This document shows positions 12,366 to 63,362 of a stretch of DNA of 64,000 nt, one piece after another. The DNA lies in NCBI GenBank assembly GCA_963749445.1, contig CAVVMJ010000010.1:117738-181737 (forward strand), in the 5' to 3' direction. The DNA is from an uncultured bacterium (GTDB lineage Bacteria > Patescibacteriota > Doudnabacteria > UBA920). The notes under the pieces are model-generated. The model had not been told where the DNA came from. It worked only from the letters and a program-made list of their open reading frames with translations, and did no database searches. The position numbers and the translations under genes were made by a program. Within the stretch, counting starts at the first letter, position 1. Each line of letters opens with the position of its first letter.

Positions 12366-12404
12366 AAACAATTAACGATTAACAATTGACAATTAACATA
12401 AAAC
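12366..12404. repeat. left arm of a caattaacgattaac palindrome enclosing four-helix-bundle copy 2
   Basis: aacaattaacgattaacaattgacaattaac vs the reverse complement of 12781-12815, aacaattgacgattaacgattaacgattaac. Confidence 0.7.
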
Positions 12405-22035: not shown

Positions 22036-22075
22036 AAAATTTTTTGGGTTAAAAATTAAGTTTTAAAAATTTTAT

Positions 22076-22152
22076 TTCCTACGAACCTACGAACCTTTAC
22101 CGAACTACGAACTCACTAGCTTTCGCAGTTCGTACCGTTCGTAAGTTCGTAG
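22076..22152. repeat. ctacgaac-word hairpin (copy 1)
   Basis: cctacgaacctacgaacc...ggttcgtaagttcgtag; a near-identical copy lies at 23835-23909. Confidence 0.75.
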
Positions 22153-22155
22153 AAT

Positions 22156-23823
22156 TTAAGCAATAGGAAGCGAAAAATAAAACGTCGTACCCAAATTTTC
22201 GCCGGCCGACTCGGCCCAAATTTTGCCGCCGTGGGCCTCCACAATGCCGCGGCTGACCACCAGGCCCAGGCCCGTGCCTTTGCGCGAGCGGTCGCCGCTT
22301 TGCAGCTGCTTGAATTTGGAAAACAGCTGGTTTAAGTCTTCGCGGGCCACGCCGATGCCGCTGTCTTTGACCCCGACTACGACCTGCTTTTCGGCAGCGT
22401 CCAGGCTGACATTAACGTCAATTTGCCCGCTGTCGGTATATTTAATGGCATTGCTCAGCAAATTGCCCAAAACCTGGGAAACCCTAACCCTATCAAATTT
22501 TACCATATATTTGTCCGGAGCGGTACACCCAATGGTCAAATGCTTGGCTTCCGCCTGCGGAGCAAAAGCTTTAGCCTGATCCTTAATGACATCCACCAAA
22601 TCATAGACTTGCAAATTCAGCTCAAATTTGCCCGCTTCAATTTTGGCCACGTCCAGCAGGTCATTGACCAGTTCCAGCATATTGTTGGACGCGGTTTCAA
22701 TGGTCATAACCGTGTCTTTGACTTTACCCGGATCCACCCCGGCTTGGCTGGCCGCCAAATTTTTTAGCATTGATTCGGACGACCAGCGCACGGCGGTCAG
22801 CGGCGCGCGCAATTCGTGGACCATCATAGCCGTAAATTCCTGCCGGGTTTTTTCCAGGGTTTTTTCCGTGGTGATGTCGTGGAAAACCACGCTGGCGCCC
22901 AATTTTTCCCCGGCCGAAGTTTTTACCGGCGACACGCCGACTTCCAGGGCTTTATCTTTTAAATAAACTTCCTGGATCAGCATGGGCTTGTCCTCGCTCA
23001 AAGACTGTTCAATTTTGGTGCGGATGTCAACTTTTCCGGACAGACCGTCTACAATGTCAAACATAGTCAATGGTTTGCCGGCAGGCAAACCAAATAATCC
23101 CACGGCCGCGGGGTTATAAACCATTAAGCGGTTATCAATACTGACCATAACCACGCCGTCAGTCAAAGAATAAATAACAGCCGACAGCTTGCCCTTTTCG
23201 TTTTCCAGCACGCTCTGCAGTTTGGATACGGCTGTGGCCGCCTGGTTGGTGATGGCATACAAAATAGAGGCCTGAGCCTCGCCGTAGCGCCCGCGCTCTA
23301 TGGAAGCCACGTTAATCATTCCCACCAGCCGGTTGGAAATTACCACCGGCAGGTTAAAAAACGACTGCACGCCGGCTTTGGAATTATCATCCAAAATATT
23401 GCCGGTAATGCTTTCGTCCAGCTTTTGCGGCTTGACCTCACCGTCCAAAATGGCCGCGAACGACAGCAGCATTTTTTCCTTGACCTGTTCAATGAACTTG
23501 TGGCTCACCGAGCGCTCCACGTGGCATTTGAACACCACTGTGCCGTCTTCGCCCAAAAGCATATAAGCCACGGTGTCGTAATCCAAAAGGTTACCCAAAC
23601 TGCTGGTAATAATATCTATAATTTTGTTGGTGTCCAGAGAATAGCCAATACGCTCGTTGATTTCCTTGAGCACTTCGGCCTGATAAACTTTTTGCTGAAG
23701 TTCCAAGCCCTGGCTGGCTTCCTGGCGCAAATATTTGCGCTCGCGCAAGGACGTGTAAATATAGCCGACAAGCACGACGGCCAGCATGGCAAAATCAATG
23801 GCAAGCAGCAGGTTGAGGATCAT
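22156..23823 (-). CDS. sensor histidine kinase (TM, GAF/PAS, HisKA, HATPase_c)
   Basis: H-box MVHELRAPLTAV; N, G1 and G2 boxes (GTGLGLVVSRGIVEAHGG). Confidence 0.85.
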   Translation of the reverse strand: MILNLLLAIDFAMLAVVLVGYIYTSLRERKYLRQEASQGLELQQKVYQAEVLKEINERIGYSLDTNKIIDIITSSLGNLLDYDTVAYMLLGEDGTVVFKCHVERSVSHKFIEQVKEKMLLSFAAILDGEVKPQKLDESITGNILDDNSKAGVQSFFNLPVVISNRLVGMINVASIERGRYGEAQASILYAITNQAATAVSKLQSVLENEKGKLSAVIYSLTDGVVMVSIDNRLMVYNPAAVGLFGLPAGKPLTMFDIVDGLSGKVDIRTKIEQSLSEDKPMLIQEVYLKDKALEVGVSPVKTSAGEKLGASVVFHDITTEKTLEKTRQEFTAMMVHELRAPLTAVRWSSESMLKNLAASQAGVDPGKVKDTVMTIETASNNMLELVNDLLDVAKIEAGKFELNLQVYDLVDVIKDQAKAFAPQAEAKHLTIGCTAPDKYMVKFDRVRVSQVLGNLLSNAIKYTDSGQIDVNVSLDAAEKQVVVGVKDSGIGVAREDLNQLFSKFKQLQSGDRSRKGTGLGLVVSRGIVEAHGGKIWAESAGENLGTTFYFSLPIA

Positions 23824-24322: not shown

Positions 24323-25834
24323 TCATAGCTCTTTGACGCGCCCAAAACCCACCGAGTCGCGGAAGGCTTTGCCGGCGGCCATCATTTGCGCCCGCAAAAC
24401 GGTAAATTCCCCGTATTTGTCGTTAATGTCATCCAGCGCTGCCACCAAAGCGCGCTGCCGCTCAATATCGCCGAATAAAGACATCTGATGAATATACGGG
24501 CGCAGGCCGGCCACGGTTACGCCGATCAATTTTATCCCTGCGACATTTATCGGATATATCCCCGTAGGGGCGGGTTTCAAACCCGCCCCTACGCCGGGCT
24601 TAATCATTTTTAGGCATTCCAGGAAAATCTCCCGCCCGTCCTGCAAAAAATATCTCAACTTTTTGCTGTCGCCGAAACCCTGATAATCTTTGTCGTGATA
24701 ATAACAGCTGATGACATTCCCCATTAACTGTTTCTTGCGCAACCGCCGGCCCACCATTTCGCAAAGCTTGTACAGCACGGGCACAAAAAATTCCGGTTTG
24801 CGGAATTCCTGCGGCAAGGTGTACATATGTCCCATGGATTTGATTTCTTGTTCCTGATGAACCTCGGCTTTCCAAGTGCCTTCCAGTTGGCCGAGATTAT
24901 ATAAATGATGACCCGCGACCCGACCAAAACGCGCCACCAAGTGGCTGCGAGGGAAATCCCGCAAGTCTTTTAAGGTTTTGATCCCCAGCTCGTTTAAATT
25001 CCGCTCCTGCCGCCGCCCGATGCCCGGGACGTCGGTAAGTTTAAGCTGATGATACAAATCACCCTTAGATAAAACAAGGCAATCGGCGCTGTAGGGGCGG
25101 ATATCATCCGCCCTTTGTCGTGGGAGGATAATATCCTCCCCTACGCAACCATTGTGAATCACCGTCAACCCATCCGGTTTTTTTAAATCCGACGCAATCT
25201 TGGCCAAAGCCTTATTATCGGCAATCCCAACGCTGCACCTGAGCCAATCCCCAACTTCGGTTTTAAACCGCCGCTTTATTTCCCGCGCAATGTTTGCCGC
25301 CTCTTCAAAGGGATCAATCGAAAATTGTCCCATCCCGACCAACGAGTGCATCCGACCCGTTCGGTTCAACTCAGGGTCGCCCTGAGCGTAGCCGAATGGG
25401 CGAGGAGTGGAGGGATCTGTCTGATATAATAGATCCCTCGGCTCATCCTCAGGTGCATTCGGATTCGCTCGGGATGGCGAAAAAAAATTCCTAACATTGC
25501 ACACCCTCGTCAAATCCAAAAAACACTCGTCAATGCTGTACTTTTCCACCTTGTCCGTATAATCGCCCACGACTTTTAAAAACCTCCTGGTGTAAAACCG
25601 GTATCGTTCGGCGTGAGTTTGGGTCAAAATAATCTTAGGATATAACTTTTTGGCTTCCCACACCGGCGTGCCGGTTTTGATGCCCCATTTTTTGGCCTCC
25701 ACAGACGCCGCGATAATAATGCCGCCCAAATGCTCGCACACGCCCACGGGCTTTCCGCGCCAACTCAAATTATCCTGCTGCTCCACAGAGGCAAAATACG
25801 AGTTCATATCCAGATGCATTATTATGGACTGCAT
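24323..25834 (-). CDS. dinB: DNA polymerase IV (Y-family) carrying three in-frame palindromic insertions
   Basis: MHLDMNSYFASVE...SIDECFLDLT...CSVGIADNKALAKIAS...; 503 aa against the usual ~360. The extra segments coincide with the repeats at 24563-24591, 25091-25144 and 25330-25500. Confidence 0.8.
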   Translation of the reverse strand: MQSIIMHLDMNSYFASVEQQDNLSWRGKPVGVCEHLGGIIIAASVEAKKWGIKTGTPVWEAKKLYPKIILTQTHAERYRFYTRRFLKVVGDYTDKVEKYSIDECFLDLTRVCNVRNFFSPSRANPNAPEDEPRDLLYQTDPSTPRPFGYAQGDPELNRTGRMHSLVGMGQFSIDPFEEAANIAREIKRRFKTEVGDWLRCSVGIADNKALAKIASDLKKPDGLTVIHNGCVGEDIILPRQRADDIRPYSADCLVLSKGDLYHQLKLTDVPGIGRRQERNLNELGIKTLKDLRDFPRSHLVARFGRVAGHHLYNLGQLEGTWKAEVHQEQEIKSMGHMYTLPQEFRKPEFFVPVLYKLCEMVGRRLRKKQLMGNVISCYYHDKDYQGFGDSKKLRYFLQDGREIFLECLKMIKPGVGAGLKPAPTGIYPINVAGIKLIGVTVAGLRPYIHQMSLFGDIERQRALVAALDDINDKYGEFTVLRAQMMAAGKAFRDSVGFGRVKEL

Positions 25835-25837
25835 AAC

Positions 25838-25893
25838 AATTTACGATTAACGATTAACAGTACCAAAGGTTAATTGTCAATTGTTAATCGTTA
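25838..25893. repeat. caattgttaatcgttaa-word hairpin (gene-less form of the element around four-helix-bundle copy 2)
   Basis: acgattaacgattaacag taccaaagg ttaattgtcaattgttaatcgt. Confidence 0.7.
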
Positions 25894-26008
25894 AAAGTTA
25901 TTCGTATTCTAATAGTATACGATTGTTCACCTTTTATCAACCCTAAGTTATCCACACTCCTTTGCCAAGGCTTCAGAGTGCAAGCAAATAAAAAACGCGC
26001 GCCGTGGA

Positions 26009-28059: not shown

Positions 28060-28140
28060 ATATTTTTATTTCGTTAGATTAATTTTGATTTATTATAGGA
28101 TAGTTTGTCGCAAATAGCAAATTCCACGCTCTTCACGACG

Positions 28141-28230
28141 AAATTGCGAGGAGCCGGGGCTTTATCCGGCGACGAAGCAATCCCGATAAATATCAACTGG
28201 GCTGCTTTGGATGCACTCGCAGCTTCCATT
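28141..28230. mobile_element. MITE family 2 copy (AAATTGCGAGGAGCC.GGGCTTTATC.GGCGACGAAGCAATCCCGATA ... GCACTCGC)
   Basis: Shared 50-nt 5' block with the copies at 31240, 38811 and 31498 (inverted). Confidence 0.75.
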
Positions 28231-31239: not shown

Positions 31240-31336
31240 GAAATTGCGAGGAGCCAGGGCTTTATCTGGCGACGAAGCAATCCCGATATTTTTTGGGATT
31301 GCCGCGCCCCTCGCTGCATCGGGGCTCGCAATTTCC
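31240..31336. mobile_element. MITE family 2 copy
   Basis: gaaattgcgaggagccagggctttatctggcgacgaagcaatcccgata...ggctcgcaatttcc. Confidence 0.8.
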
Positions 31337-31344
31337 ACTAATTT

Positions 31345-33225
31345 TCAAACTGATTTTCTAATATCTATAATCCGCAGTTTCGCCTGCTCGTATCCATTCC
31401 ATCCGTCGCGGATGAGTTCCGCCGCAACGTCTACATTATCGCCCACTTTTAAAGTTTTGGCAAAATCGCCGCAGTTGAACATTATGGCCGGTATGATGAG
31501 CCTTGTCATTCCTGAAATCGCGAGTGCAGCCGAAGCGATCCAGTTCTTTAGCAGGATTGCTTCGCCCTCGGCTGCACTCGGGCTCGCAATTTCATCGTTT
31601 GAGCTTAACTGCATCTGCAAGTGCTGCTGGCTAGTTCCAACCAGCCGGACGGAATTGATTTTTAAATTGCGGATGAGAAACTTGGGTTTGGGGTTGCCCA
31701 CGCCGAGGGGCTCTAATTGCTGCAACAATTGACAATTAACAATTGACAATTGACTGCCATCCAGTTCTGCTTCCAATAATAACTGATGATGTAAATCAGT
31801 TTCAGAAAGGCTTGCCTCCGCGTACTCCAAAATCTTTTTATAAAATTCCTCGTATTCCGCGGTTTTCAAAGTCAGTCCCGCGGCCTGCTGGTGCCCGCCG
31901 AATTTTACAAGATGTTCGGAAGCAAATTTTAATGCCTCAATAATATTAAATTCCCCAACCGTGCGCGCCGAGCCGGTAGATTCCGTTTCCCCTCTATCTA
32001 AAATAATCGTCGGCTTGTAAAATTCTTCCGCAATGCGACCCGCCACCAAACCGACCACGCCTTTGGGCCAATCCCGCCCTAGCAGAATCAAAACTTTGCG
32101 GTCTTGGTATTTTACCGCCTGCTCGCGCGCTTCACTTAGCAACTGCCCGGTCAAATCCTGCCGGCGGCGGTTAATTTGCTCCAAGGCCAAGGCTTTTTGC
32201 TGGGCGGCCAACGCATCGGTTTCCATTAAAAGATGTAGGGCGACATTGGCGTGCTCCAACCGGCCCGCGGCATTCAGCCGCGGCGCAATGATAAAGCCAA
32301 GTGTATAAGTATCCATCGGTTTCCAGAAGGCGCCCTCTTGCAGACCGGCTGATATCATCAGCGCTTTCAAACCAACCCACCGCGTCTTAGCCAAAACCTT
32401 GAGCCCGTATTTTACCAAAATCCGGTTTTCGCCGAGCAGACTGTGGCAGTCCGCCACCGTGCCGATGGCGACAAGGTCTAACAGCCATTTTTCCCATCCT
32501 TGAATAACGGATGATCCGCGTGTAAATCCGCGTAGCCGATCCGCGTGTAAATCCGCGGCGCGCAGCAACCCACAGGCCAATTTAAACGCCACGCCCACCC
32601 CAGTTAAGTCGTGATACAGATATTTGTCGCCTGAATTTTTTGGATTTATCAGCGCGTAGGCTTTCGGCAGTTCGCCGATGATTTCATGGTGATCGGTAAT
32701 GATTAAATCGATATTGTTCGCGCGACAAAAATTAGCGGCGTCAACCGAGTTTGTGCCGCAGTCAACGGTAATGATTATCCTTGATCCTCCATCCTTAATC
32801 TTTGACAATGCGTCAACGTTGACCCCATAACCTTCGGCAAACCTGTCGGGGATGTAACTTTCAACCTCAACGCCCAAATAACGAAACGTTTGCTGCAACA
32901 CGGCATTGGCCGTAACCGCATCCGCGTCGTAGTCGCCATAAATACAAATTCGCTGATGTTTATCAATCGCTTCCCAAATCCTGTCCACCGCCTTTTGCAT
33001 ATCCCCAAACAAAAACGGGCCATGCAAATTTTCATACTTGGGATATAAAAATTCCTCAATCTGATTTTTCTCGGTTAATCCTCGATTAAACAACAATTGA
33101 GACAACAATCGCAAATCCCCTTCCCCTCTGGGGGAAGGTGGCCGGAGGCCAGATGAGGGTTCTCTGTGAATATTTGTCTGATTTTCGCCAAAATCTCTTC
33201 CGTCACCTGCGATTTTAGTTTCCAA
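31345..33225 (-). CDS. recJ: single-stranded-DNA exonuclease RecJ (DHH/DHHA1), with in-frame MITE family 2 copy near the C-terminus and a disturbed N-terminus
   Basis: DHH motifs (ITVDCG...ITDHHE). Residues DEIASPSAAEGEAILLKNWIASAALAISGMTR are encoded by repeat 31498-31596. A GC-rich repeat at 33110-33170 separates an upstream MPKNWKLKSQVTEEILAKI segment in another frame. Confidence 0.75.
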   Translation of the reverse strand: METKIAGDGRDFGENQTNIHREPSSGLRPPSPRGEGDLRLLSQLLFNRGLTEKNQIEEFLYPKYENLHGPFLFGDMQKAVDRIWEAIDKHQRICIYGDYDADAVTANAVLQQTFRYLGVEVESYIPDRFAEGYGVNVDALSKIKDGGSRIIITVDCGTNSVDAANFCRANNIDLIITDHHEIIGELPKAYALINPKNSGDKYLYHDLTGVGVAFKLACGLLRAADLHADRLRGFTRGSSVIQGWEKWLLDLVAIGTVADCHSLLGENRILVKYGLKVLAKTRWVGLKALMISAGLQEGAFWKPMDTYTLGFIIAPRLNAAGRLEHANVALHLLMETDALAAQQKALALEQINRRRQDLTGQLLSEAREQAVKYQDRKVLILLGRDWPKGVVGLVAGRIAEEFYKPTIILDRGETESTGSARTVGEFNIIEALKFASEHLVKFGGHQQAAGLTLKTAEYEEFYKKILEYAEASLSETDLHHQLLLEAELDGSQLSIVNCQLLQQLEPLGVGNPKPKFLIRNLKINSVRLVGTSQQHLQMQLSSNDEIASPSAAEGEAILLKNWIASAALAISGMTRLIIPAIMFNCGDFAKTLKVGDNVDVAAELIRDGWNGYEQAKLRIIDIRKSV

Positions 33226-33269
33226 TTTTTAGGCATATCAATTATTGTATCATTATCTTAAATACAATT

Positions 33270-37576: not shown

Positions 37577-38801
37577 CTATTTCAACGCCTCAATGCCCGG
37601 CAATTTTTTGCCGGCCAGGTATTCCAGCATGGCGCCGCCGCCGGTGGAGACGTGGTCGATGTTTTCAAATTGGTGCGCCTGACGGACGGCGTCAACCGTG
37701 TCTCCGCCGCCGACCACGACAAACGCGCGGCCCTTGCCGCGGCCGCCGATGAGCCGCGCCAACGCCATAGTGGCGTGGTGAAAAGGCCTGACTTCAAACC
37801 GTCCTAAGGGGCCGCTCCACAAAATGGTTTTGGCTTTTTTGATTTCCTGGGCGAACGCCAAAATGGTTTTTGGGCCCGCGTCCAAAACCTGTTCTTTTTT
37901 GCCGATGTCATAAGGCGTAGCCACGCGGATGGTGTCTTTGTCCATTTTCTCATCCACCACCACCACGTCCAGCGGCAACATTAACTTGTCCTTATAATTC
38001 TTTTCAATTTCCCAGGCAACCTTTAGCTTCGCCTTCCTCAATTTTGGACAAACCGATCTCCAAACCTTTAGATTTAAACATCAAATTGGCCACTCCCCCG
38101 CCCACCAAAATTTTGTCCGCTTTTTTGCCCAAATTTTCCAATGCCCCGACTTTTTCCGAAAGCTTGATGCCGCCCGTCATCACCACAAACGGATGCTTAA
38201 CGCTTTTAAGCATCATATCCAAAGATTTGATTTCTTTTTCCAAAAGCAAACCGCAATAGCTATCCAAATACTTAGTCACGCCGACCGTGGACGCGGCCGC
38301 ACGATGGTCCACGCCGAACGCGTCATTAACGTAAACATCGGCAAAACTCGCCAATTTTTTGGCAAAAACCGGATCGTCTTTTTCTTCGCCTTCGTAAAAC
38401 CGTAAATTCTCCAGCAAAATAATGTCTTTGGCCGGCGCCATCCCAAGCTGCTCCTGATGTTTTTCTTCCAGAATATTTCCGGTATAAAAAATAAAATGGT
38501 TAATTTGGTATTCCGGCAGCTTATGGTCAGTCTCCAAAAATTTATAGCCCAGCATCTCAGCCATCAATTTGGCCACGGGCTCTAAACTAAATTGCGGGTC
38601 TTTTTTGCCCTTTGGCCGCCCCAAATGCCCGCAAACAATTACCGTATTGCCTGCTGCATGCAAATGTTTAATAGTCGGAATAATTTGCTCAATCCTAAAA
38701 GCGTCGTTAACCTTGCCATTATCAATCGGCACGTTTACGTCCACGCGCAGCAGGACGGTTTTATTTTGGATTTTGGATGTTCGCAAATATTTTATAGCCA
38801 T
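37577..38801 (-). CDS. pgk: phosphoglycerate kinase, reading frame broken by a 1-nt insertion near 38020
   Basis: N-terminal part MAIKYLRTSKIQNKTVLLRVDVNVP... ends at ...IEEGEAK and continues in the -1 frame as VAWEIEKNYKDKLMLPLDVVVV...GGGAMLEYL; context gaagctaaaggttgcc. Confidence 0.8.
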
Positions 38802-38810
38802 AAAAAATTA

Positions 38811-38896
38811 TGAATTTGCGAGGAGCCAGGGCTTTAACTGGCGACGAAGCAATCTCATTAAATATTGGGATTACTTAGGCTGCACTCGCAATTTCA
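38811..38896. mobile_element. MITE family 2 copy
   Basis: gaatttgcgaggagccagggctttaactggcgacgaagcaatctcat...ctgcactcgcaatttc. Confidence 0.8.
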
Positions 38897-39190
38897 ACCG
38901 AGTAATTTAGAATATAGATCTTCCCAATTAGGATTCATTTTATTTATTAAATCTATTTTCTTTTGCCTGGAACCGCCTTTGATTTGTTTTTCTCGTTCCA
39001 ACGCGGTATACATCTCCTCAAAAACTTCGTAATATACCAGCTTGTCTACGTTATATTTTTTAGTAAACCCCTTCACTATATGCTGTTTGTGTTGCCATGT
39101 TCTCTTTATTAGTCCGTTTGTAAATCCAGTATATAAAACCGTATGTCGTTGGTTGGTCAATATATAGATATAGAACTGTTCCGATATCAT
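38894..39190 (-). CDS. GIY-YIG nuclease-family protein (stand-alone, ~98 aa)
   Basis: FYIYILTNQRHTVLYTGFTNGLIKRTWQHK...YYEVF...ALEREKQIKGGSRQKK: GIY..YIG..R..E..N core. Confidence 0.75.
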   Translation of the reverse strand: MISEQFYIYILTNQRHTVLYTGFTNGLIKRTWQHKQHIVKGFTKKYNVDKLVYYEVFEEMYTALEREKQIKGGSRQKKIDLINKMNPNWEDLYSKLLG

Positions 39191-39206
39191 ACATTGTTTG
39201 GTATTA

Positions 39207-39245
39207 TCGGGATTGCTCCGTCGGCTGCACTCCTCGCAATTTCAG
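39207..39245. mobile_element. partial MITE family 2 copy (3' half)
   Basis: gggattgctccgtcggctgcactcctcgcaatttcagg. Confidence 0.6.
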
Positions 39246-41433: not shown

Positions 41434-41443
41434 AGGTTAGTGA

Positions 41444-41490
41444 ATTAGTGAATTAGAGAGTTTACGTTCTAATTCTCTAATTCTCTATTT
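41444..41490. repeat. gtgaattag-word hairpin
   Basis: gttagtgaattagtgaattagagag...ctctaattctctaatt; related copy at 62613-62684. Confidence 0.65.
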
Positions 41491-41503
41491 TTCTTTTTAC
41501 TGA

Positions 41504-44242: not shown

Positions 44243-44563
44243 TTAACTCCGTTTTGTCGTTATTTGATAATTTTTCTTTCTGAAACGGCGGATGACAAGT
44301 AAAATTATAAAGCTAATTAAAATCCAAAAAAATAAATTAAGGAATAAAACTGATAAATCACCCAAAAATAATTCGTGATTTTTAAAAGGGAACCCAAAAT
44401 CATATATTTTAGGGCAAGGCCCCAAAAAGCAATCAGGCTGATAACTGTTCAAAGTCAGAAGACTGGCGACGACATCAATCAAAAATCCCAACACCACGCT
44501 CCACGCCGCCAAACCGGTTTTTGACTGTAAGCTGAAGATTTTCATGTTTGTTTCTGCCGTCAA
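44243..44563 (-). CDS. hypothetical membrane protein
   Basis: 106 aa, 2-3 TM helices. Confidence 0.4.
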   Translation of the reverse strand: MTAETNMKIFSLQSKTGLAAWSVVLGFLIDVVASLLTLNSYQPDCFLGPCPKIYDFGFPFKNHELFLGDLSVLFLNLFFWILISFIILLVIRRFRKKNYQITTKRS

Positions 44564-44566
44564 TTG

Positions 44567-45250
44567 TTAATTGTTTCCGCCAGAGGCGGATCCGCCTTCG
44601 GCGGAAATCGTCAATTGTTGATTTAGTTTTTCCCAAGCATCCGCCATATCCGGCGCTCTGATGAGGGCGCTGCCGACTACTATTAAATCCGCCGAGGCAT
44701 GAGCGACTTTTTTAACATTCCCGATATTTATGCCGCCATCTACCTCTATTATAGCATTGGGAATTAACTTTCTCAAAGCCGCGACGCGCTCTAAGGTTTC
44801 CGGAATGAACTCCTGACCCTGGTAACCAGGAACCACCCCCATAATTTGAAAATGATGGACGATTTTTTCCAAATCCTTAAGCACCTCCACCGGCGTGCCG
44901 GGATTAATGGCAACGCCCGGTTTAATCCCCTCGGCCGTTATGGCCGCAATGGCCTCATGCAGGTCGCGCGAATTGTCAAAGGATTCGTAATGCACCAAAA
45001 CCGTGCCAAAACCCGCCATTTTGTAGTCAAACATCTCTTTGGGTTCTTTGATCATCAAGTGCGCTTCCCATTCAAACGCCGGGTTCAGGCCGTCCATGGC
45101 GGTTACCGGCAACAGCTTGCGGTCAATAAACGCGCCGTCGCCGAAATCCACCTGGACGCGTTTGACGCCGGGCAGTTTGGTGACGCGGGAAACTTTATCC
45201 AAAAAGGCTTCCGAAGTTTCCTCTAAAATTGCGGGGACGATTTGGGGCAT
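44567..45250 (-). CDS. rpe: ribulose-phosphate 3-epimerase with repeat-encoded C-terminal tail
   Basis: MPQIVPAILEE...VDFGDGAF...; the last ~16 aa (LTISAEGGSASGGNN) are encoded by hairpin 44558-44622. Confidence 0.85.
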   Translation of the reverse strand: MPQIVPAILEETSEAFLDKVSRVTKLPGVKRVQVDFGDGAFIDRKLLPVTAMDGLNPAFEWEAHLMIKEPKEMFDYKMAGFGTVLVHYESFDNSRDLHEAIAAITAEGIKPGVAINPGTPVEVLKDLEKIVHHFQIMGVVPGYQGQEFIPETLERVAALRKLIPNAIIEVDGGINIGNVKKVAHASADLIVVGSALIRAPDMADAWEKLNQQLTISAEGGSASGGNN

Positions 45251-45360: not shown

Positions 45361-45812
45361 TTAAAACTCTGCTGCTCTATCCTTTTTATCTTATCTATTC
45401 TCCGCTGATGCCTGCCGCCTTCAAACCCGGTCTTGAGCCACAAGTCCACCGCCGCTTTGGCCTGCGCAACGCTGACAAATCCAAAACCCAAAGACAGCAT
45501 ATTGGCGTCATTGTGCTGCCGGGCCAGTTCAACAATTTTTAAATCCCCGCCCTGGTACAACGCGCAGCGGATACCCCGAACTTTGTTGGCCACTATGGCT
45601 TCGCCGTTGCCGCTTAAACCCAAAACTATTCCGCGGTTACCGTCCACCGACGCGGTTTTAACCGCGCACGGATAAATAAAATCCGGATAGTCGTCGTCCT
45701 TGTCATATTTAAACGGCCCAACATCCTCAACTTCCAAATTCTGCTCCTTAAGGTATTGGCAGAGCGTATTTTTTAATTCAAACCCGGCGTGGTCGCTGGC
45801 GATGTATATCAT
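45357..45812 (-). CDS. rpiB: ribose-5-phosphate isomerase B
   Basis: MIYIASDHAGFELK...GIVLGLSGNGEAIVANK... Confidence 0.85.
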   Translation of the reverse strand: MIYIASDHAGFELKNTLCQYLKEQNLEVEDVGPFKYDKDDDYPDFIYPCAVKTASVDGNRGIVLGLSGNGEAIVANKVRGIRCALYQGGDLKIVELARQHNDANMLSLGFGFVSVAQAKAAVDLWLKTGFEGGRHQRRIDKIKRIEQQSFK

Positions 45813-45893
45813 GTTAGCGTTTAGCGTTTAGCGTTTAGCGTTTAGCAGTCCACTGTGTGGCTAAATGCTAATCGCTAATTGCTAACTGCTAAT
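45813..45893. repeat. ttagcg-word palindrome
   Basis: gttagcgtttagcgtttagcgtttagcag tccactgtgtgg ctaaatgctaatcgctaattgctaactgctaa; a related copy lies at 63270-63362. Confidence 0.7.
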
Positions 45894-46575
45894 AATTGAT
45901 TATCTGATTAAAGTACAAAGGCACTAAACTCGCTCCCCCAACCAACAAACCGTCAACGTTGTGCTGTTTTAAAAATTCCGCCGCGTTGGCCGCGTTAACG
46001 CTGCCGCCGTACAAAACTTTTTTGATTTGGTATTTGGTCTTAATGAAAATCGCGATTGATTCGGCGTGCTCGGGCGAGGCGTTTTTGCCGGTGCCAATGG
46101 CCCAGACCGGTTCGTAAGCGACGACGACCGATTCCGTGTCAACTCCGGCTAAATCAATATCCAGCTGGCTCTTTAAAATATCCGTAACTTCCAATTCGTC
46201 ATCTTCTACCGTGGTGCCGTACCCTACGCAGAGGATGGGAATAATTTTATGGCTGATGAGTGTCCGCAATTTGGCGTTAATCTGCTCGTCACTTTCTCCG
46301 GTACCGCGCTTTTCGCTGTGGCCGACGATGCAATACTTTATGCCCAAATCATTCAGCTGCAGCGGACTAGTCTCGGCTGTGAACGCGCCCTTGTCCTGCC
46401 AAAAACAATCCTGCGCGCCTAAGTTTGGATAATCTATCCGCGATAAATAAATGGTCGGCGGGCACAGCACCACCTTATTTTTCGCCCGAACGGAAATTTC
46501 CGCCGCCAGTTTTTGGGCGTCTTTGAGCGTAGTGGGATTTAATTTCCAATTGGCTACTATTAATTTTTTTGACAT
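45889..46575 (-). CDS. tpiA: triosephosphate isomerase
   Basis: LIVANWKLN...IVGHSEKR...AYEPVWAIGTGK... Confidence 0.9.
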   Translation of the reverse strand: MSKKLIVANWKLNPTTLKDAQKLAAEISVRAKNKVVLCPPTIYLSRIDYPNLGAQDCFWQDKGAFTAETSPLQLNDLGIKYCIVGHSEKRGTGESDEQINAKLRTLISHKIIPILCVGYGTTVEDDELEVTDILKSQLDIDLAGVDTESVVVAYEPVWAIGTGKNASPEHAESIAIFIKTKYQIKKVLYGGSVNAANAAEFLKQHNVDGLLVGGASLVPLYFNQIINY

Positions 46576-52177: not shown

Positions 52178-53761
52178 CTACTCTATTAATTCCCCACCGA
52201 ACACCTTGAGCACGTCGCCCAAGTTTACTGCCGCGCCTTCGGCCGCCAGTGGTTTGATTACCGCGCCGCGCACGGCCAGGGGCTTGCCGCTGATTTCCCG
52301 GATGACTGATGAAATCATGGCTTGATTTTTAGCATTTTCCAAATTGGCTTTGTCAAAATTAAACTTCACGCCCACAATTATGGCCCGGCCCAAAACGCCG
52401 TCTAGTGACGCGGTCTTAATTAAACTGGCCAGCGGACAGTTGCGCTTTTTGAGTTCCGCGATAAATTTTGGCCACCAAGCGCGGACTTCCTCCAAAGTTA
52501 TGGCTTCGGCCAAAGGAGTTTCATCGTCCGCCGATAATTCCGCGACCTCATCTTTTTTTGTTTCCGGATGATTACTGACCACGACCGTCGGTTGTTTAAC
52601 CGGCGCTGACAGAACCGCCGATCCGATTTTCTGATTTTCCGATTTATCCGATTTGCCGGATCTCCGCTGCGCCGCTTCCAAAGCCGCCAACAGCAGCGGA
52701 ATCTCGCCGCGCGGGCTGGAATTCAAATCTTTATACGACTTTAAAAACAGCCGCACGATAAAAATCAATTCCTGCGGATTGGCCAAAGCGGCCTGCTTTT
52801 TTATCTCCTCCTCGTGTTCTTTAGCCAGACCGGATAAACCTCCGCCGCTGACCTGAAAAATTAAAATTTTGCGCAAATATTCCAAAAAGTCGCGGTTAAA
52901 CACGGCCAAGTCCGCGCCCTGTTCCGATAAATTATCAAAAAACGCGGGAATCTCCGCCATCTTGCCGGCCAAAATGTGGCCAAGCAAACGGTGGCAGACG
53001 CCAAAGTCTGTAATGCCCAACAGCTGCTGGCAATCTTCCAAAGTGGCGTCTTCTCCCAAGGTAATAACTTTATCCAGCAAACTTAAAGCGTCGCGGACGC
53101 TGCCCTCGGCGTTGTCCGCAATCAGCCTTAAAATTTCTTTATTTAATTTAAAATGTTCAGCCTTTAAAATCTTTTCCAGATGTTCGGCCAATTCCCCGGG
53201 TTCCAACAGCTTAAAGTCAAACCGCTGGGTGCGCGAGATAATCGTAGCCGGCACTTTGTTGGCTTCGGTGGTAGCCAGCACAAAAATGGCATGCTGCGGC
53301 GGCTCTTCCAAAGTTTTCAAAAGCGCGTTAAACGCGCCCTTGCTGAGCATATGGACTTCATCGATGATAAAAACTTTATACTTGCCCACGGACGGGCTGA
53401 ACCTGACGTGCTCCACCAAATCGCGGATATTGTCCACGCCGGTGTTGGACGCGGCGTCAATTTCCACCAAATCCAAAAAGTTGCCGTTCTGTATTGCCAT
53501 GCAATTTGCGCACTTGCCGCAAGGGTCCCCCTCATCCGACTTAGCCCTTAGCCCTTCACCCTTAGCCCTATTCTCGCAATTCACCGCCTTGGCCAACAAA
53601 CGCGCCAAAGTGGTTTTGCCAATGCCGCGGCTGCCAGTAAATAAATAAGCGTGCGCGACCGAACCCGCCGCCACCTGATTTTTCAACGTGCGAATAATGT
53701 GCTTTTGCCCCAAAACCTCTGCGAAGGTCTGCGGTCGATATTTGCGATATAGTACAGCCAT
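52178..53761 (-). CDS. dnaX: DNA polymerase III subunit gamma/tau with in-frame gggctaag repeat insertion
   Basis: MAVLYRKYRPQTFAEVLGQ...GSRGIGKTT...; AKGEGLRAKSDEG inside the Zn-finger region is encoded by repeat 53538-53572. Confidence 0.85.
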   Translation of the reverse strand: MAVLYRKYRPQTFAEVLGQKHIIRTLKNQVAAGSVAHAYLFTGSRGIGKTTLARLLAKAVNCENRAKGEGLRAKSDEGDPCGKCANCMAIQNGNFLDLVEIDAASNTGVDNIRDLVEHVRFSPSVGKYKVFIIDEVHMLSKGAFNALLKTLEEPPQHAIFVLATTEANKVPATIISRTQRFDFKLLEPGELAEHLEKILKAEHFKLNKEILRLIADNAEGSVRDALSLLDKVITLGEDATLEDCQQLLGITDFGVCHRLLGHILAGKMAEIPAFFDNLSEQGADLAVFNRDFLEYLRKILIFQVSGGGLSGLAKEHEEEIKKQAALANPQELIFIVRLFLKSYKDLNSSPRGEIPLLLAALEAAQRRSGKSDKSENQKIGSAVLSAPVKQPTVVVSNHPETKKDEVAELSADDETPLAEAITLEEVRAWWPKFIAELKKRNCPLASLIKTASLDGVLGRAIIVGVKFNFDKANLENAKNQAMISSVIREISGKPLAVRGAVIKPLAAEGAAVNLGDVLKVFGGELIE

Positions 53762-55539: not shown

Positions 55540-55800
55540 CCTTTTCCGCCCAATGGATCCTCCCCTGCGGCAGAACTGCGAAGTAACATCTGCATTTTGG
55601 TGTTCCATTCCGAGCGAGTTCGAATGCAGCTGAGGACGAGCCGAGGAATCTATCACTTTTACAGATCCCTCCGCTCCTCCTCGCCCATTCGGCTCCGCTC
55701 AGGGCGACCCTGAGTTTATCGAACGGGTCGGATGCTACTTAGTCGTCGGTCGGGATGGAACATCCGGAACAGAATTCCGAGGAAATATTCTTGATTACAA
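55540..55800. repeat. GC-rich modular repeat (same family as 3697-3995; carries the extra module that is also present, inverted, inside dinB)
   Basis: gttccattccgagcgagttcgaatgcagctgaggacgagccgaggaatct...ccctccgctcctcctcg + module cccattcggctccgctcagggcgaccctgag... + tcgtcggtcgggatgga...cgaggaaatattcttgatta. Confidence 0.75.
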
Positions 55801-62612: not shown

Positions 62613-62684
62613 AAAAATAGTGAATTAGTGATTTAGAGAATTAGCGAACTAGTTTTCTAATTCTCTAGTTCTCTAATTTTCTTG
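62613..62684. repeat. gtgaattag-word palindrome (rplR-rplF spacer)
   Basis: gtgaattagtgatttagagaattagcgaactagttttctaattctctagttctctaatt. Confidence 0.65.
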
Positions 62685-63269
62685 CTACTTACCGCCTCCC
62701 ACAACCTTAACCACTTTCCCCGCTTTGCGGCGCACGACTTCATCGGAATACTTAATTCCTTTACCTTTGTACGGTTCCGGCTTTTTAAGCTCGCGGACAT
62801 TGGCTGCAAACTGGCCGACTTTTTGCTTGTCCGCGCCGAAAATGCTGATGGTATTTTTGTCAACCGCAATGGTCAGATCCTTGGGTACCTCAACCACCAC
62901 GGGATGGGAAAAGCCCAAAGACATCGTGAGTTTGCCGGGAGTCGCGGCAACCTTAAAACCCACGCCGATAACTTCCAACTTCTTTTCATAGCCTTTGGTA
63001 ACCCCGTCCACCATATTCTGGATCAAAGAGCGGAACAGCCCCCACAAGGCGCGCTCTTTTTTAACGTCCTGTTTTTGCACGCCGATCAAAACTTCCTTTT
63101 CGCCCACGCTGACGGAAACGTCCGGATGAATGGCCAAAGTCAAAACGCCCTTGGGGCCGGTGACGGTTAAAGTCTCTTCTTTTCCGGCGGAGCCGGATCC
63201 CGCTCCGCGGGACTTTTCTACCTTCACGCCGGAAGGAATGATGACTGGTTTTTTTCCTATTCTGCTCAT
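62685..63269 (-). CDS. rplF: 50S ribosomal protein L6
   Basis: MSRIGKKPVIIPSGVKV... Confidence 0.9.
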   Translation of the reverse strand: MSRIGKKPVIIPSGVKVEKSRGAGSGSAGKEETLTVTGPKGVLTLAIHPDVSVSVGEKEVLIGVQKQDVKKERALWGLFRSLIQNMVDGVTKGYEKKLEVIGVGFKVAATPGKLTMSLGFSHPVVVEVPKDLTIAVDKNTISIFGADKQKVGQFAANVRELKKPEPYKGKGIKYSDEVVRRKAGKVVKVVGGGK

Positions 63270-63362
63270 ATGTTACTAGCGTTTAGCTTTTAGCAGTTAG
63301 CGTTTAGCCACACACGAATGCCTGGCTAAATGCTAAATGCTAATGGCTAACCGCTTAATTAA
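63270..63362. repeat. ttagcg-word palindrome (rplF-rpsH spacer)
   Basis: ctagcgtttagcttttagcagttagcgtttagcc...ggctaaatgctaaatgctaatggctaaccgctta. Confidence 0.65.

Follow-up and report, generated by a model that had tools for sequence, protein, structure and literature searches.

Introduction

Most known cases of palindromes inserted in frame into housekeeping genes come from Rickettsia. The elements concerned, the Rickettsia palindromic elements (RPEs), were described by Ogata et al. (2000, 2002) and, according to a review (PMC10969869), are ~150 bp long and encode a conserved peptide within each family. Among the REP sequences, a precedent is the REPIN-RAYT system, in which REP doublets are accompanied by a single-copy gene for a REP-associated tyrosine transposase (PMC3116915, PMC3337134). 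A further group, the CGTC-tagged REPs, includes Rickettsia RPE-4/-6 and Neisseria dRS3 and has stems of 8-9 bp, loops of 4-5 nt and a CCA tail, with no dedicated transposase reported for its members (Di Nocera et al. 2013, PMC3733652). More generally, no enzyme has been known to mobilise REP-like repeats that lack a RAYT (PMC3733652).

Here, we analyse a family of palindromic repeats in a 64-kb stretch of DNA (64,000 nt; hereafter, the window) from a Doudnabacteria-like member of the Candidate Phyla Radiation (CPR). One copy lies in frame within recJ, and a GIY-YIG nuclease gene in the same window is bordered by matching arms. This gene, absent from an initial annotation of the window, is the most informative feature of the repeat family. 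Taken as a whole, the data are probably best read as a REPIN/RAYT-like system with a GIY-YIG partner, the doublets of which occasionally persist in permissive protein loops, as RPEs do.

Results

A palindromic doublet interrupts the OB domain of RecJ

The features at the core of the analysis are the following:

31345-33225, minus strand: recJ, encoding DHH, DHHA1 and RecJ_OB domains (Pfam), with the OB domain split by an insertion
31514-31593, minus strand: palindromic doublet within recJ, 80 nt end to end, sense strand GAAATTGCGAG...CTCGCGATTTC
31504-31593, minus strand: net in-frame insertion in RecJ, 90 nt or 30 aa (residues 545-574), peptide EIASPSAAEGEAILLKNWIASAALAISGMT

The initial annotation had proposed that part of RecJ is encoded, in frame, by an inverted copy of a repeat, and both repeat membership and comparison with orthologues bore this out. 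Relative to L104, where the sister site is empty (GGC GAT|CGC CAA), the 90-nt net insertion consists of the 80-nt palindrome plus 10 nt, AGGAATGACA. The 11-mer GAAATTGCGAG, allowing at most one mismatch, occurs nine times in the window as compared to 2.5 expected occurrences, and two inverted occurrences fall inside recJ (31514-31524 and 31583-31593). A covariance model trained on unrelated metagenome arms only (designated R1) matched the recJ arm at 31554-31590 on the minus strand with an E-value of 8e-4, while the partner arm at 31517-31541 on the plus strand (E=3.8) was not significant alone. The second recJ arm contains a doubly compensated basal stem (ATCGC/GCGAT), and the segment folds into a hairpin of -25.4/-26.3 kcal/mol (z=-5.3/-5.7).

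At the protein level, alignment revealed the insertion to be absent in 13 of 15 genomic orthologues and in ~65 of 77 RecJ homologues from databases. Pfam RecJ_OB matches the window protein in two stretches broken by the insertion, and PDB alignments are interrupted at the same place. In an AF2 model of RecJ (pLDDT 90.8), the insert (model residues 171-200) is the sole low-confidence part (pLDDT 58-61) and is placed between strands E160-167 and E202-207 (model numbering), i.e. at the tip of a β-hairpin of the OB domain. By these comparisons, the 30-aa segment is a repeat-derived, lineage-specific insertion and not ancestral. The converse reading, in which RecJ had the segment ancestrally and gave rise to the intergenic copies as fragments, could invoke one intergenic copy lying just 258 nt away, past the recJ stop; however, the segment is missing in nearly all orthologues, matches a model derived from unrelated metagenomes, and has copies at unlinked loci, including those that flank the GIY-YIG gene, so that this reading is already contradicted and retains hardly any probability. 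As a minor observation, the 10 nt AGGAATGACA that follow the element are similar to the L002-type element at its right end, TCAGGATGAC, and might have been left by an earlier insert.

The 626-codon recJ frame stays open through the insert, and the 52 C-terminal residues beyond it are conserved and in frame in the orthologue alignment. We infer that the insertion is translated. Further upstream in the same gene, the frame is disturbed:

33095-33236, minus strand: recJ 5′ region, with a frame switch between N-terminus and gene body inside a repeat-like insert (..PSPRGEGD..)

The gene body is read in a different frame from the conserved RecJ N-terminus (ATG 33236), and pgk, elsewhere in the window, is split into two ORFs; given both, some decay or assembly error in the window genome is possible. 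One might go further and argue that the recJ copy is not made as protein at all, being part of a decaying pseudogene or of a contig with assembly errors, and that its 'in-frame' position is biologically meaningless. We regard this as very unlikely in light of the frame that remains open across the insert, the conserved C-terminal residues, the intact AF2 fold around the insert, and comparable in-frame inserts at the same RecJ loop in five other independent assemblies.

Recurrent occupation of the RecJ loop and the basis of frame-keeping

Related elements of three types, and in two reading frames, reside in the same RecJ loop in P0391, P0410, P0403, L001 and L002. The peptides inserted at this loop are wholly different between lineages, and many close RecJ relatives, the sister sequence included, lack any insert. 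A single ancestral recJ insertion shared by the window with L001 and L002 was considered and rejected because the sister sequence of the window has an empty site and the L001/L002 element is of another type, in another frame relative to its ends. On the basis of a rough NJ tree, the best explanation would be that the OB loop of RecJ was struck independently in sister lineages.

Repeated occupation of one loop in several lineages might also signal co-option, with the 30-aa helix-bearing excursion serving as a new interaction surface of RecJ, or with the mRNA hairpin regulating recJ/rnhA expression. The strength of the hairpin (z about -5.5) and the compensated basal stem ATCGC/GCGAT, kept within coding sequence, would be in keeping with such a role. 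Yet the peptides bear no resemblance from one lineage to the next, nor is the frame the same throughout; the loop is free of any insert in many close relatives, the sister sequence among them, and AF2 confidence for the segment is low, leaving co-option a distinctly improbable account.

Frame-keeping can be traced to selection. End to end, the intragenic copies measure 80, 98, 74 and 79 nt, none of which is a multiple of three, and the recJ 5′ insert breaks the frame; therefore, survival in frame reflects selection and is not built into the elements. This qualifies the general statement of the initial annotation that repeat families colonise coding sequence while keeping the reading frame.

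The inserts of the window share with RPEs the presence of short palindromes in frame in unrelated housekeeping genes of a reduced-genome bacterium, at sites compatible with the protein fold (the β-hairpin tip of the RecJ OB domain and the zinc loop of DnaX), as well as the occurrence of intergenic copies. By description rather than by sequence comparison, the recJ element differs from RPEs in its CPR host, in its smaller size (~80-100 bp), in peptides that are not conserved, in lengths that are not multiples of three, and in having a candidate GIY-YIG partner. The RecJ, DnaX and DinB cases show that in-frame insertion leaves its mark on the proteomes of CPR lineages too, which are ultra-small and either free-living or epibiotic, and that loop hotspots are hit repeatedly across sister lineages.

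The repeat is an inverted pair of REP-like hairpins

Besides the copy in recJ, the window contains these members of the family:

31240-31335, plus strand: doublet in the gap from the recJ stop to the rnhA start (z=-4.8), 258 nt away from the copy inside recJ
28140-28225, plus strand: intergenic copy, left arm intact and right arm degenerate (R1 E=5e-6; z=-1.1 for the whole element)
38812-38895, plus strand: complete doublet directly 3′ of the GIY-YIG gene (z=-4.3)
39204-39243, minus strand: solo arm immediately 5′ of the GIY-YIG gene (R1 match at 39209-39240, E=1.5e-3)

In total, there are four doublets of 80-96 nt and one solo arm in the 64-kb window. Model R1 matched four window arms in addition to that in recJ, with E-values from 5e-6 to 1.5e-3; within the doublet at 31240-31335, the two arms scored E=5e-6 (31243-31284) and E=0.42 (31294-31332). 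Another R1 match, at 45506-45548, was dismissed on inspection as a chance match.

The doublets have 11-nt inverted ends, are small and multi-copy, and lack coding capacity. The two inverted hairpin modules are each composed of an end tag of 3 nt, a basal stem of 5 bp (ATTGC/GCAAT), an internal loop (GA/GAA), an upper stem of variable length, and a CTC/CCC tail. The upper stem covaries. In the hairpin arms, 18 cells were altered on both sides, as compared to 3.7 +/- 1.5 in shuffles, a count that none of the 500 shuffles attained, and the mean MFE of 99 unique arms was -10.4 versus -6.4 when shuffled. GTC is the tag in 171 of 187 arms. Among distant relatives, 38 of the 42 listed arms start with TGTC or CGTC followed by ATTGC, and it is at this position that the window family carries GAAATTGC. 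Rfam searches of both loci, at gathering thresholds and in permissive scans, returned just one tRNA and chance matches. In metagenome annotation, the arms very commonly give rise to spurious 'hypothetical proteins' and odd C-terminal extensions, such as the ...GEIASANTASQ tail on P0052.

The initial annotation had referred to the recJ copy as a MITE, a loose label, at 31498-31596, limits that we refine to 31514-31593. Terminal inverted repeats, small size, multiple copies and the lack of coding capacity are indeed shared with MITEs of coding regions (Coxiella QMITEs, PMC5896051; review PMC10969869), which sometimes give rise to in-frame fusions. In contrast to MITEs, the family showed no target-site duplication, neither flanking the copies at 28140, 31240, 31514 and 38812 nor at the recJ junctions in L102/L103, and no related element with a DDE transposase was found. 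The copies examined revealed no defined target motif. No transposase was found between matching ends either, the sole gene there being that of the 98-aa GIY-YIG nuclease.

The CGTC REPs resemble the distant relatives of the window element, which have a CGTC/TGTC start, a stem opening with AT and a short C-rich tail, form inverted dimers, and occur inside genes. The two are set apart, by description, through the 5-bp basal stem, internal loop, variable upper stem and CTC/CCC tail of the present element, and through the replacement of GTC by GAA in the window family.

A conserved GIY-YIG nuclease gene is flanked by matching arms

Between the doublet at 38812-38895 and the solo arm at 39204-39243 lies a single gene:

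38894-39190, minus strand: stand-alone GIY-YIG nuclease gene of 98 aa in the gap-pgk interval (Pfam PF01541, E=2.4e-14)

Proteins of this family are 95-98 aa long, i.e. the catalytic domain only, with invariant residues Y9, Y20, G22, R30, H34, R66 and N86 and a near-invariant E67; the window protein retains every invariant residue. Its closest solved relative is UPF0213 protein BH0048 (1zg2, E=3e-5), and NCBIfam contains no family matching it. The position of the gene between gap and pgk is constant in five related genomes (including L002, L108, L109 and L110), and its dN/dS is ~0.03 relative to L002. In the window lineage, synteny and substitution pattern thus indicate the gene to be vertically inherited and under strong purifying selection. 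L002 has a further GIY-YIG gene (1153-1404), of a different subfamily and without such arms.

The physical association between gene and hairpins extends far beyond the window. Of 72 metagenome loci, 61 have outward-facing end motifs within 160 nt upstream of the gene, 62 have them within this distance downstream, and 56 have them on either side, against a background of 0.11 per 160 nt. Flanking arms were also found in named Xanthobacteraceae and Methylacidiphilales contigs and, confined to the downstream side, in a Rivularia contig. The 130 nt preceding the gene contained no arm in the Rivularia and Methylacidiphilales contigs. Altogether, the association spans at least four phyla, and identity of the protein across phyla is 60-70%. 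The gene is present once in the 64-kb window and essentially once per metagenome locus. The unit in the window reads arm, gene, arm, inverted arm, and so has one arm more than the simple arm-gene-arm layout.

The end tag follows the nuclease. It is GAA in 19 of 23 cases belonging to the close nuclease clade and GTC in 328 of ~350 cases at distant loci, where GAA is not among the common tags. Tag and nuclease clade hence covary in these sequences, a covariation that is confounded with host phylogeny as the close clade corresponds to one host lineage.

Literature searches, whose coverage was incomplete, for GIY-YIG linked to MITE, palindromic, RAYT, REPIN, REP, UPF0213, YhbQ or inverted repeats yielded no paper connecting them, and searches of similarly incomplete coverage for the arm sequence itself and for palindromic or in-frame repeats in the Candidate Phyla Radiation yielded none that makes the GIY-YIG-repeat link.

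The GIY-YIG protein as candidate partner enzyme

As in REPIN-RAYT systems, the window family consists of dispersed, inverted doublets of short hairpins, whose conserved, unpaired tag is specific to the nuclease lineage, and it comes with a conserved, vertically inherited, hairpin-flanked nuclease gene (56 of 72 loci) present in one copy in the 64-kb window. It departs from them in that the partner is a GIY-YIG protein (PF01541) rather than an HUH/Y1 (IS200-like) transposase, the tag is GTC/GAA rather than GTAG, and the hairpin is bipartite with an internal loop.

We propose that a non-coding palindrome, consisting of two inverted modules that are each a REP-like hairpin, landed at the β-hairpin tip of the RecJ OB domain, where the copy would have persisted because the 90-nt net insertion is in frame, free of stop codons, and located in a permissive surface loop. 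The repeat belongs to a cross-phylum superfamily, gene-bearing members of which hold a ~96-aa GIY-YIG nuclease in the loop between the hairpins. By analogy to the role of RAYT for REPINs, this protein may be a structure-specific nuclease that nicks tagged hairpins and thereby spreads or maintains the doublets, a step to which we assign a probability slightly short of even.

Instead of mobilising the doublets, the GIY-YIG gene might be a homing-type parasite that enters the loops of pre-existing doublets, with the doublet centre as its target, and the doublets might spread by other means, i.e. another transposase, replication slippage or recombination. The location of the gene in the loop between two arms, the large excess of doublets without the gene over gene-bearing ones, the fact that GIY-YIG (PF01541) is a classic homing-endonuclease fold, and an identity of 60-70% across phyla that hints at horizontal spread are all consistent with such an origin. 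Constant synteny in five genomes and a dN/dS of 0.03, on the other hand, better fit a resident gene under selection, and a homing element would sit uneasily with a gene found just once in the 64-kb window and essentially once at each metagenome locus. Furthermore, although the protein has the GIY-YIG catalytic domain with the conserved Y, Y, R, E and N of I-TevI-type homing endonucleases, its 98 aa include no separate DNA-binding domain of the kind found in homing enzymes, and it is encoded on the chromosome between gap and pgk rather than within an intron or as a free-standing phage gene. We therefore judge the homing origin unlikely, if less so than the other alternatives weighed above.

Returning to the GIY-YIG protein as the enzyme that acts on the doublets, its association with the hairpins across at least four phyla, its fixed position under purifying selection and the covariation of tag and clade make it a concrete, directly testable candidate. 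More tentatively still than the nicking step itself, the small GIY-YIG nuclease could be the missing partner enzyme of the cross-phylum GTC-tagged REP-like hairpins. This would amount to a second, independent system of the REPIN-RAYT type on a different nuclease fold, which might extend to the CGTC REPs including Rickettsia RPE-4/-6, and whose doublets would recurrently supply new loops in essential CPR proteins.

Repeats in dnaX, rnhA, rpe and dinB

Four other genes in the window carry repeats:

53540-53570, minus strand: run of heptamer words (TAGGGCT/AAGGGNN) in the loop of the DnaX zinc module, net gain ~10 aa
31007-31037, minus strand: word run of the dnaX type, in opposite orientation, in rnhA, encoding ALALSPKPLAL, net gain 2 aa only
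44558-44622, minus strand: hairpin of CAATTG-type words at the 3′ end of rpe, overlapping the gene, with Rpe ~10 aa longer
25294-25501, minus strand: insertion of ~64 aa in dinB, coinciding with another repeat family at 25348-25477

That the zinc region of DnaX contains an insertion, as initially annotated, was corroborated: the loop of the zinc module measures 18 aa as compared to a mode of 8-10 among 120 homologues, and is 10 aa longer than that of E. coli. The suggested comparison with orthologues characterized the extra peptides of both RecJ and DnaX as lineage-specific, and the DnaX peptide, too, is by this comparison repeat-derived and not ancestral. DinB, likewise described as decorated by repeats, has ~64 and ~26 aa in excess of PDB 7yll, with the first insert at the repeat 25348-25477.

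For rnhA and rpe, the earlier description was right about the repeat and overestimated its effect on the protein. The 31-nt word run in rnhA is 94% complementary to that in dnaX; however, it does not add the 7 aa LSPKPLA to RNase HI, as the loop is only 2 aa longer than in close orthologues and not longer than in PDB homologues. Similarly, the hairpin at 44558-44622 overlaps the 3′ end of rpe, but the extension of the protein amounts to ~10 aa and not 16. The word GGGCTAAGGG was not enriched by itself (six occurrences versus 4.2 expected in the window), unlike the 31-nt rnhA/dnaX pair, which alone was significant.

The heptamer-word arrays are a phenomenon separate from the GIY-YIG-linked doublets. 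With the cyanobacterial STRR-type and Beggiatoaceae TAACTGA repeats (PMC4679880), the dnaX/rnhA runs and many intergenic hairpins of the window share the character of arrays of 7-8-nt words; they differ from these in that the window words form inverted arrays and hairpins at gene ends, some of them within coding loops.

A palindromic repeat inserted within recJ

In the window, the 11-mer GAAATTGCGAG occurs 9 times with at most one mismatch (2.5 expected), and one of its inverted pairs lies inside recJ:

31345-33225, minus: recJ, an ORF with DHH, DHHA1 and RecJ_OB domains (Pfam)
31240/31335, 31514/31593 and 38812/38895: inverted pairs of GAAATTGCGAG (word search, ≤1 mismatch)
28140 and 39243: single ends of GAAATTGCGAG (same search)

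Read along the sense strand, the recJ copy is GAAATTGCGAG-CCCGAGTGCAGCCGAGGG-CGAAGCAATCC...GGATCGCTTCGGCTGCACTCGCGATTTC. Folded as single-stranded DNA it reached -25.4 kcal/mol (z=-5.3), and the opposite strand -26.3 kcal/mol (z=-5.7). Pfam matched RecJ_OB as two stretches, and alignments to PDB RecJ structures break off at the insertion and restart beyond it. RecJ similarity places the window in a Doudnabacteria-like member of the Candidate Phyla Radiation; the closest genomic relatives (53-64% identity) carry the labels Candidatus Doudnabacteria, Patescibacteria or Saccharibacteria. The initial annotation had taken the segment for an inserted repeat copy, and comparative evidence bears this out: alignment showed it to be absent from 13 of 15 orthologues from genome contigs, and the spacing from GxxxxHLQ to IxFNxxDF is 59 residues in the window's RecJ versus 28 in ~65 of 77 database homologues. 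The nearest homologue in a rough NJ tree, P0393 (contig L104), has an empty site, ...GGC GAT|CGC CAA..., from which the net insertion measures 90 nt (31504-31593), i.e., an 80-nt palindrome plus AGGAATGACA. Since the insert peptide is not conserved in distant orthologues, an ancestral origin does not hold and the insertion reading stands. The 52 residues C-terminal of the insert are conserved and in frame in the orthologue alignment. In an AlphaFold2 model of RecJ residues 376-626 (input alignment of 58 sequences; mean pLDDT 90.8), the sole weak stretch, model residues 171-200 (pLDDT 58-61), is exactly the insert, forming a one-helix excursion between OB-fold strands E160-167 and E202-207. The recJ insertion is thus real and adds a new case to a known class of events; Rickettsia RPEs are characterised by in-frame palindromes within housekeeping genes (review PMC10969869).

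AGGAATGACA (31504-31513, after the palindrome) resembles TCAGGATGAC, the right end of the element type found in the relative L002, and may, judging from sequence, be left over from an older insert at this site. Elsewhere in recJ, the codons for QLSIVNCQLL (31724-31751) are made up of CAATTG/TAATTG heptamer words, as are the intergenic hairpins 12367-12397 and 25869-25899; this peptide was rejected as an insertion, being conserved in the relatives L001 and L010.

Inserts at the same RecJ loop in other lineages

The hairpin tip of the RecJ OB domain carries inserts in five sequences besides the window (P, database homologues; L, contigs of relatives):

P0391/L102: GAAATTGCGAG-type element, peptide EIAR...LLAIT
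P0410/L103: canonical GTCATTGCGAG-type element, peptide VIASEAKQS...LLAMT
P0403, L001 and L002: GTCATTCTGA-type element, peptide RRHSDPER...QDDA, in a different frame relative to the element ends

In the rough NJ tree, carriers sit at three or more positions, beside empty relatives, and their insert junctions lie at least one codon apart. We read the tip as a permissive loop that appears to have been hit repeatedly and independently. The tree is weak, and losses may instead account for the patchy distribution. Besides this candidate permissive loop, two more RecJ positions carry repeat-derived inserts in relatives (alignment columns L003, L005, L002), examples being LSFRASAAEPRNPL...SLRSSSDAL in L003 (10629-10667) and EPSPPASLPSSFVRLRRTSADRQGEGG in L005.

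Each arm is a REP-like hairpin

The repeats are built from arms, single hairpins with an end tag, two of which in inverted orientation form a doublet. GTC precedes 171 of 187 arms. The constant parts are the ATTGC/GCAAT basal stem and a GA/GAA internal loop; the upper stem is free in sequence with its pairing kept (e.g., GGCTGA/TCAGCC, GGTCACC/GGTGACC, GAGACTT/AAGTCTC). The mean MFE of arms was -10.4 kcal/mol versus -6.4 with shuffled middles, and 18 cells had changed on both sides versus 3.7 ± 1.5 after shuffling (30-arm alignment; 0/500 shuffles). A covariance model trained on foreign, metagenomic arms recovered the window's arms, including one recJ arm at E=8e-4, and also matched the intragenic arms in L102 and L103; the weaker partner arm in recJ (E=3.8) was not significant alone. 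In the second recJ arm the basal stem, ATCGC/GCGAT, is doubly compensated. Each arm is therefore a REP-like hairpin.

CGTC-tagged REPs, a group holding RPE-4/-6, Neisseria dRS3 and many alphaproteobacterial repeats, have stems that begin with AT, are often dimeric and sometimes intragenic, and according to the authors lack a dedicated transposase (Di Nocera et al., PMC3733652). Among repeats distantly related to the window's element, the TGTC/CGTC tag and AT start recur, but stem, loop and tail geometry differ, and hence these repeats are not classed as CGTC-tagged REPs.

Arms flank a conserved GIY-YIG nuclease gene

Arms of family 2, the repeat family of the recJ copy, also adjoin a stand-alone nuclease gene:

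38894-39190, minus: GIY-YIG nuclease, 98-aa ORF between gap and pgk (PF01541, E=2.4e-14)
39204-39243: family-2 arm directly upstream of the gene
38812-38895: full doublet directly downstream of the gene

L002 has the same order, gap-[doublet]-[arm-GIY-YIG-arm]-pgk, and close homologues (80-88% identity) occupy the gap-pgk position in three more metagenome contigs, giving five genomes in all. The window and L002 copies of the gene share 88.7% identity, with dN/dS ~0.03, a rough ratio as dS is saturated; compared with GAPDH (88.9%, 0.054), the gene is equally constrained. Thousands of homologues 60-70% identical to the protein occur in Cyanobacteria, Alphaproteobacteria, Verrucomicrobia, KSB1 and others; NCBIfam has no family for it, and its solved relative is distant only (UPF0213 BH0048, 1zg2, E=3e-5).

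We retrieved 80 metagenome loci encoding homologues, 72 with sufficient flank for arm counts. Most have GTCATTGCGAG...GAAGCAATCTC upstream of the gene and GAGATTGC...CTCGCAATGAC downstream, often overlapping the TGA stop. An outward-facing end motif lay within 160 nt upstream in 61/72, downstream in 62/72 and on both sides in 56/72 (density-based expectation 0.11). Arms adjoin the gene in named Xanthobacteraceae and Methylacidiphilales contigs too; in Rivularia and Methylacidiphilales contigs they occur on the downstream side only. In the Xanthobacteraceae contig L105 (4853-5385), two complete doublets, not two single arms, enclose the gene.

Within the clade of the window's nuclease, 19 of 23 end tags are GAA; at loci with more distant nucleases, 328 of ~350 are GTC, and GAA is not among the common tags. 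This covariation is confounded with host lineage. One conserved resident hairpin-flanked gene, many inverted doublets lacking the gene and a tag specific to the lineage together make up the pattern of REPIN-RAYT systems, which differ in using an HUH transposase rather than a GIY-YIG fold. We infer that the tagged hairpin is what the GIY-YIG nuclease recognises. In the main rival reading, the gene would instead have invaded doublet loops as a homing-type gene. A literature search found no papers tying GIY-YIG to such repeats; a connection of this repeat superfamily to a conserved GIY-YIG nuclease, apparently undescribed as far as checked, is directly testable and is the added value of the analysis.

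Reading frame reflects survivorship

Repeats had been proposed to colonise coding sequence while keeping the frame. Net insertions are indeed multiples of 3; the elements' own lengths are not, the intragenic copies measuring 80, 98, 74 and 79 nt end to end. Nor is frame kept at the recJ 5′ end:

33060-33236, minus: conserved RecJ N-terminus, MPKNWKLK... = MPKNWKLKSQVTEEILAKIRQIFTENPH (ATG 33236), stop after 58 codons

This N-terminus and the recJ body are in different frames, with the switch inside a repeat-like insert (..PSPRGEGD..); L001 has this insert in frame, and L002-L007 lack it. The cause may be a true frameshift, a TTG start further downstream or an assembly error in a homopolymer. 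From the element lengths and this switch, it follows that frame preservation is a survivorship effect. Likewise, pgk (37577-38801, minus) is broken into overlapping ORFs of 265 aa and 154 aa, where L002 has one 407-aa gene; given both cases, this genome may contain errors or decaying genes.

Repeat-associated sequence in other genes

An extra peptide had also been proposed for the DnaX zinc-finger region, and the loop from first to second zinc ligand is indeed 18 aa, 10 aa more than in E. coli, against a mode of 8-10 aa among 120 homologues. About one-third of these have 15-27-aa loops with unrelated word-like sequences; this loop is another hotspot. The 31-nt word run in rnhA, 94% complementary to the dnaX run, encodes ALALSPKPLAL. 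The run is real, but the claimed 7-aa addition of LSPKPLA to RNase HI is not, as the loop exceeds that of close orthologues by only 2 aa and that of PDB homologues not at all. The same loop holds far larger repeat-like inserts in L001, L006, L009, L010 and L011. Rpe runs 34 residues from SALIRAPD to its end, where 55 homologues have a median of 23; the extension attributed to a hairpin stands, its size of ~16 aa does not, the closest homologue ending ~10 aa sooner. DinB (24323-25834, minus, 503 aa) exceeds DNA polymerase IV 7yll by two segments, of ~64 aa and ~26 aa; the former coincides with a 130-nt repeat (25348-25477, again at 55563-55735), in agreement with the repeat-associated sequence proposed there.

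Other repeats in the window

Genes lie nearly all on the minus strand, and spacers are packed with hairpin-forming repeats of several families. A separate ~110-nt palindromic family with ends TTGATGGGCATCTTCG...CGAAGATGCCCATCAA is intergenic only (3712, 8338, 14279, 27485, 40311, 50353). Hairpins at most gene ends are inverted arrays of 7-8-nt words (TTAGTGAA, CTACGAAC, GCTAAAT...), reminiscent of the heptamer repeats of cyanobacteria or Beggiatoa, and may serve as terminators. Examples of these word-array hairpins are:

41437-41501
62617-62697
22062-22159
45858-45910
63258-63355
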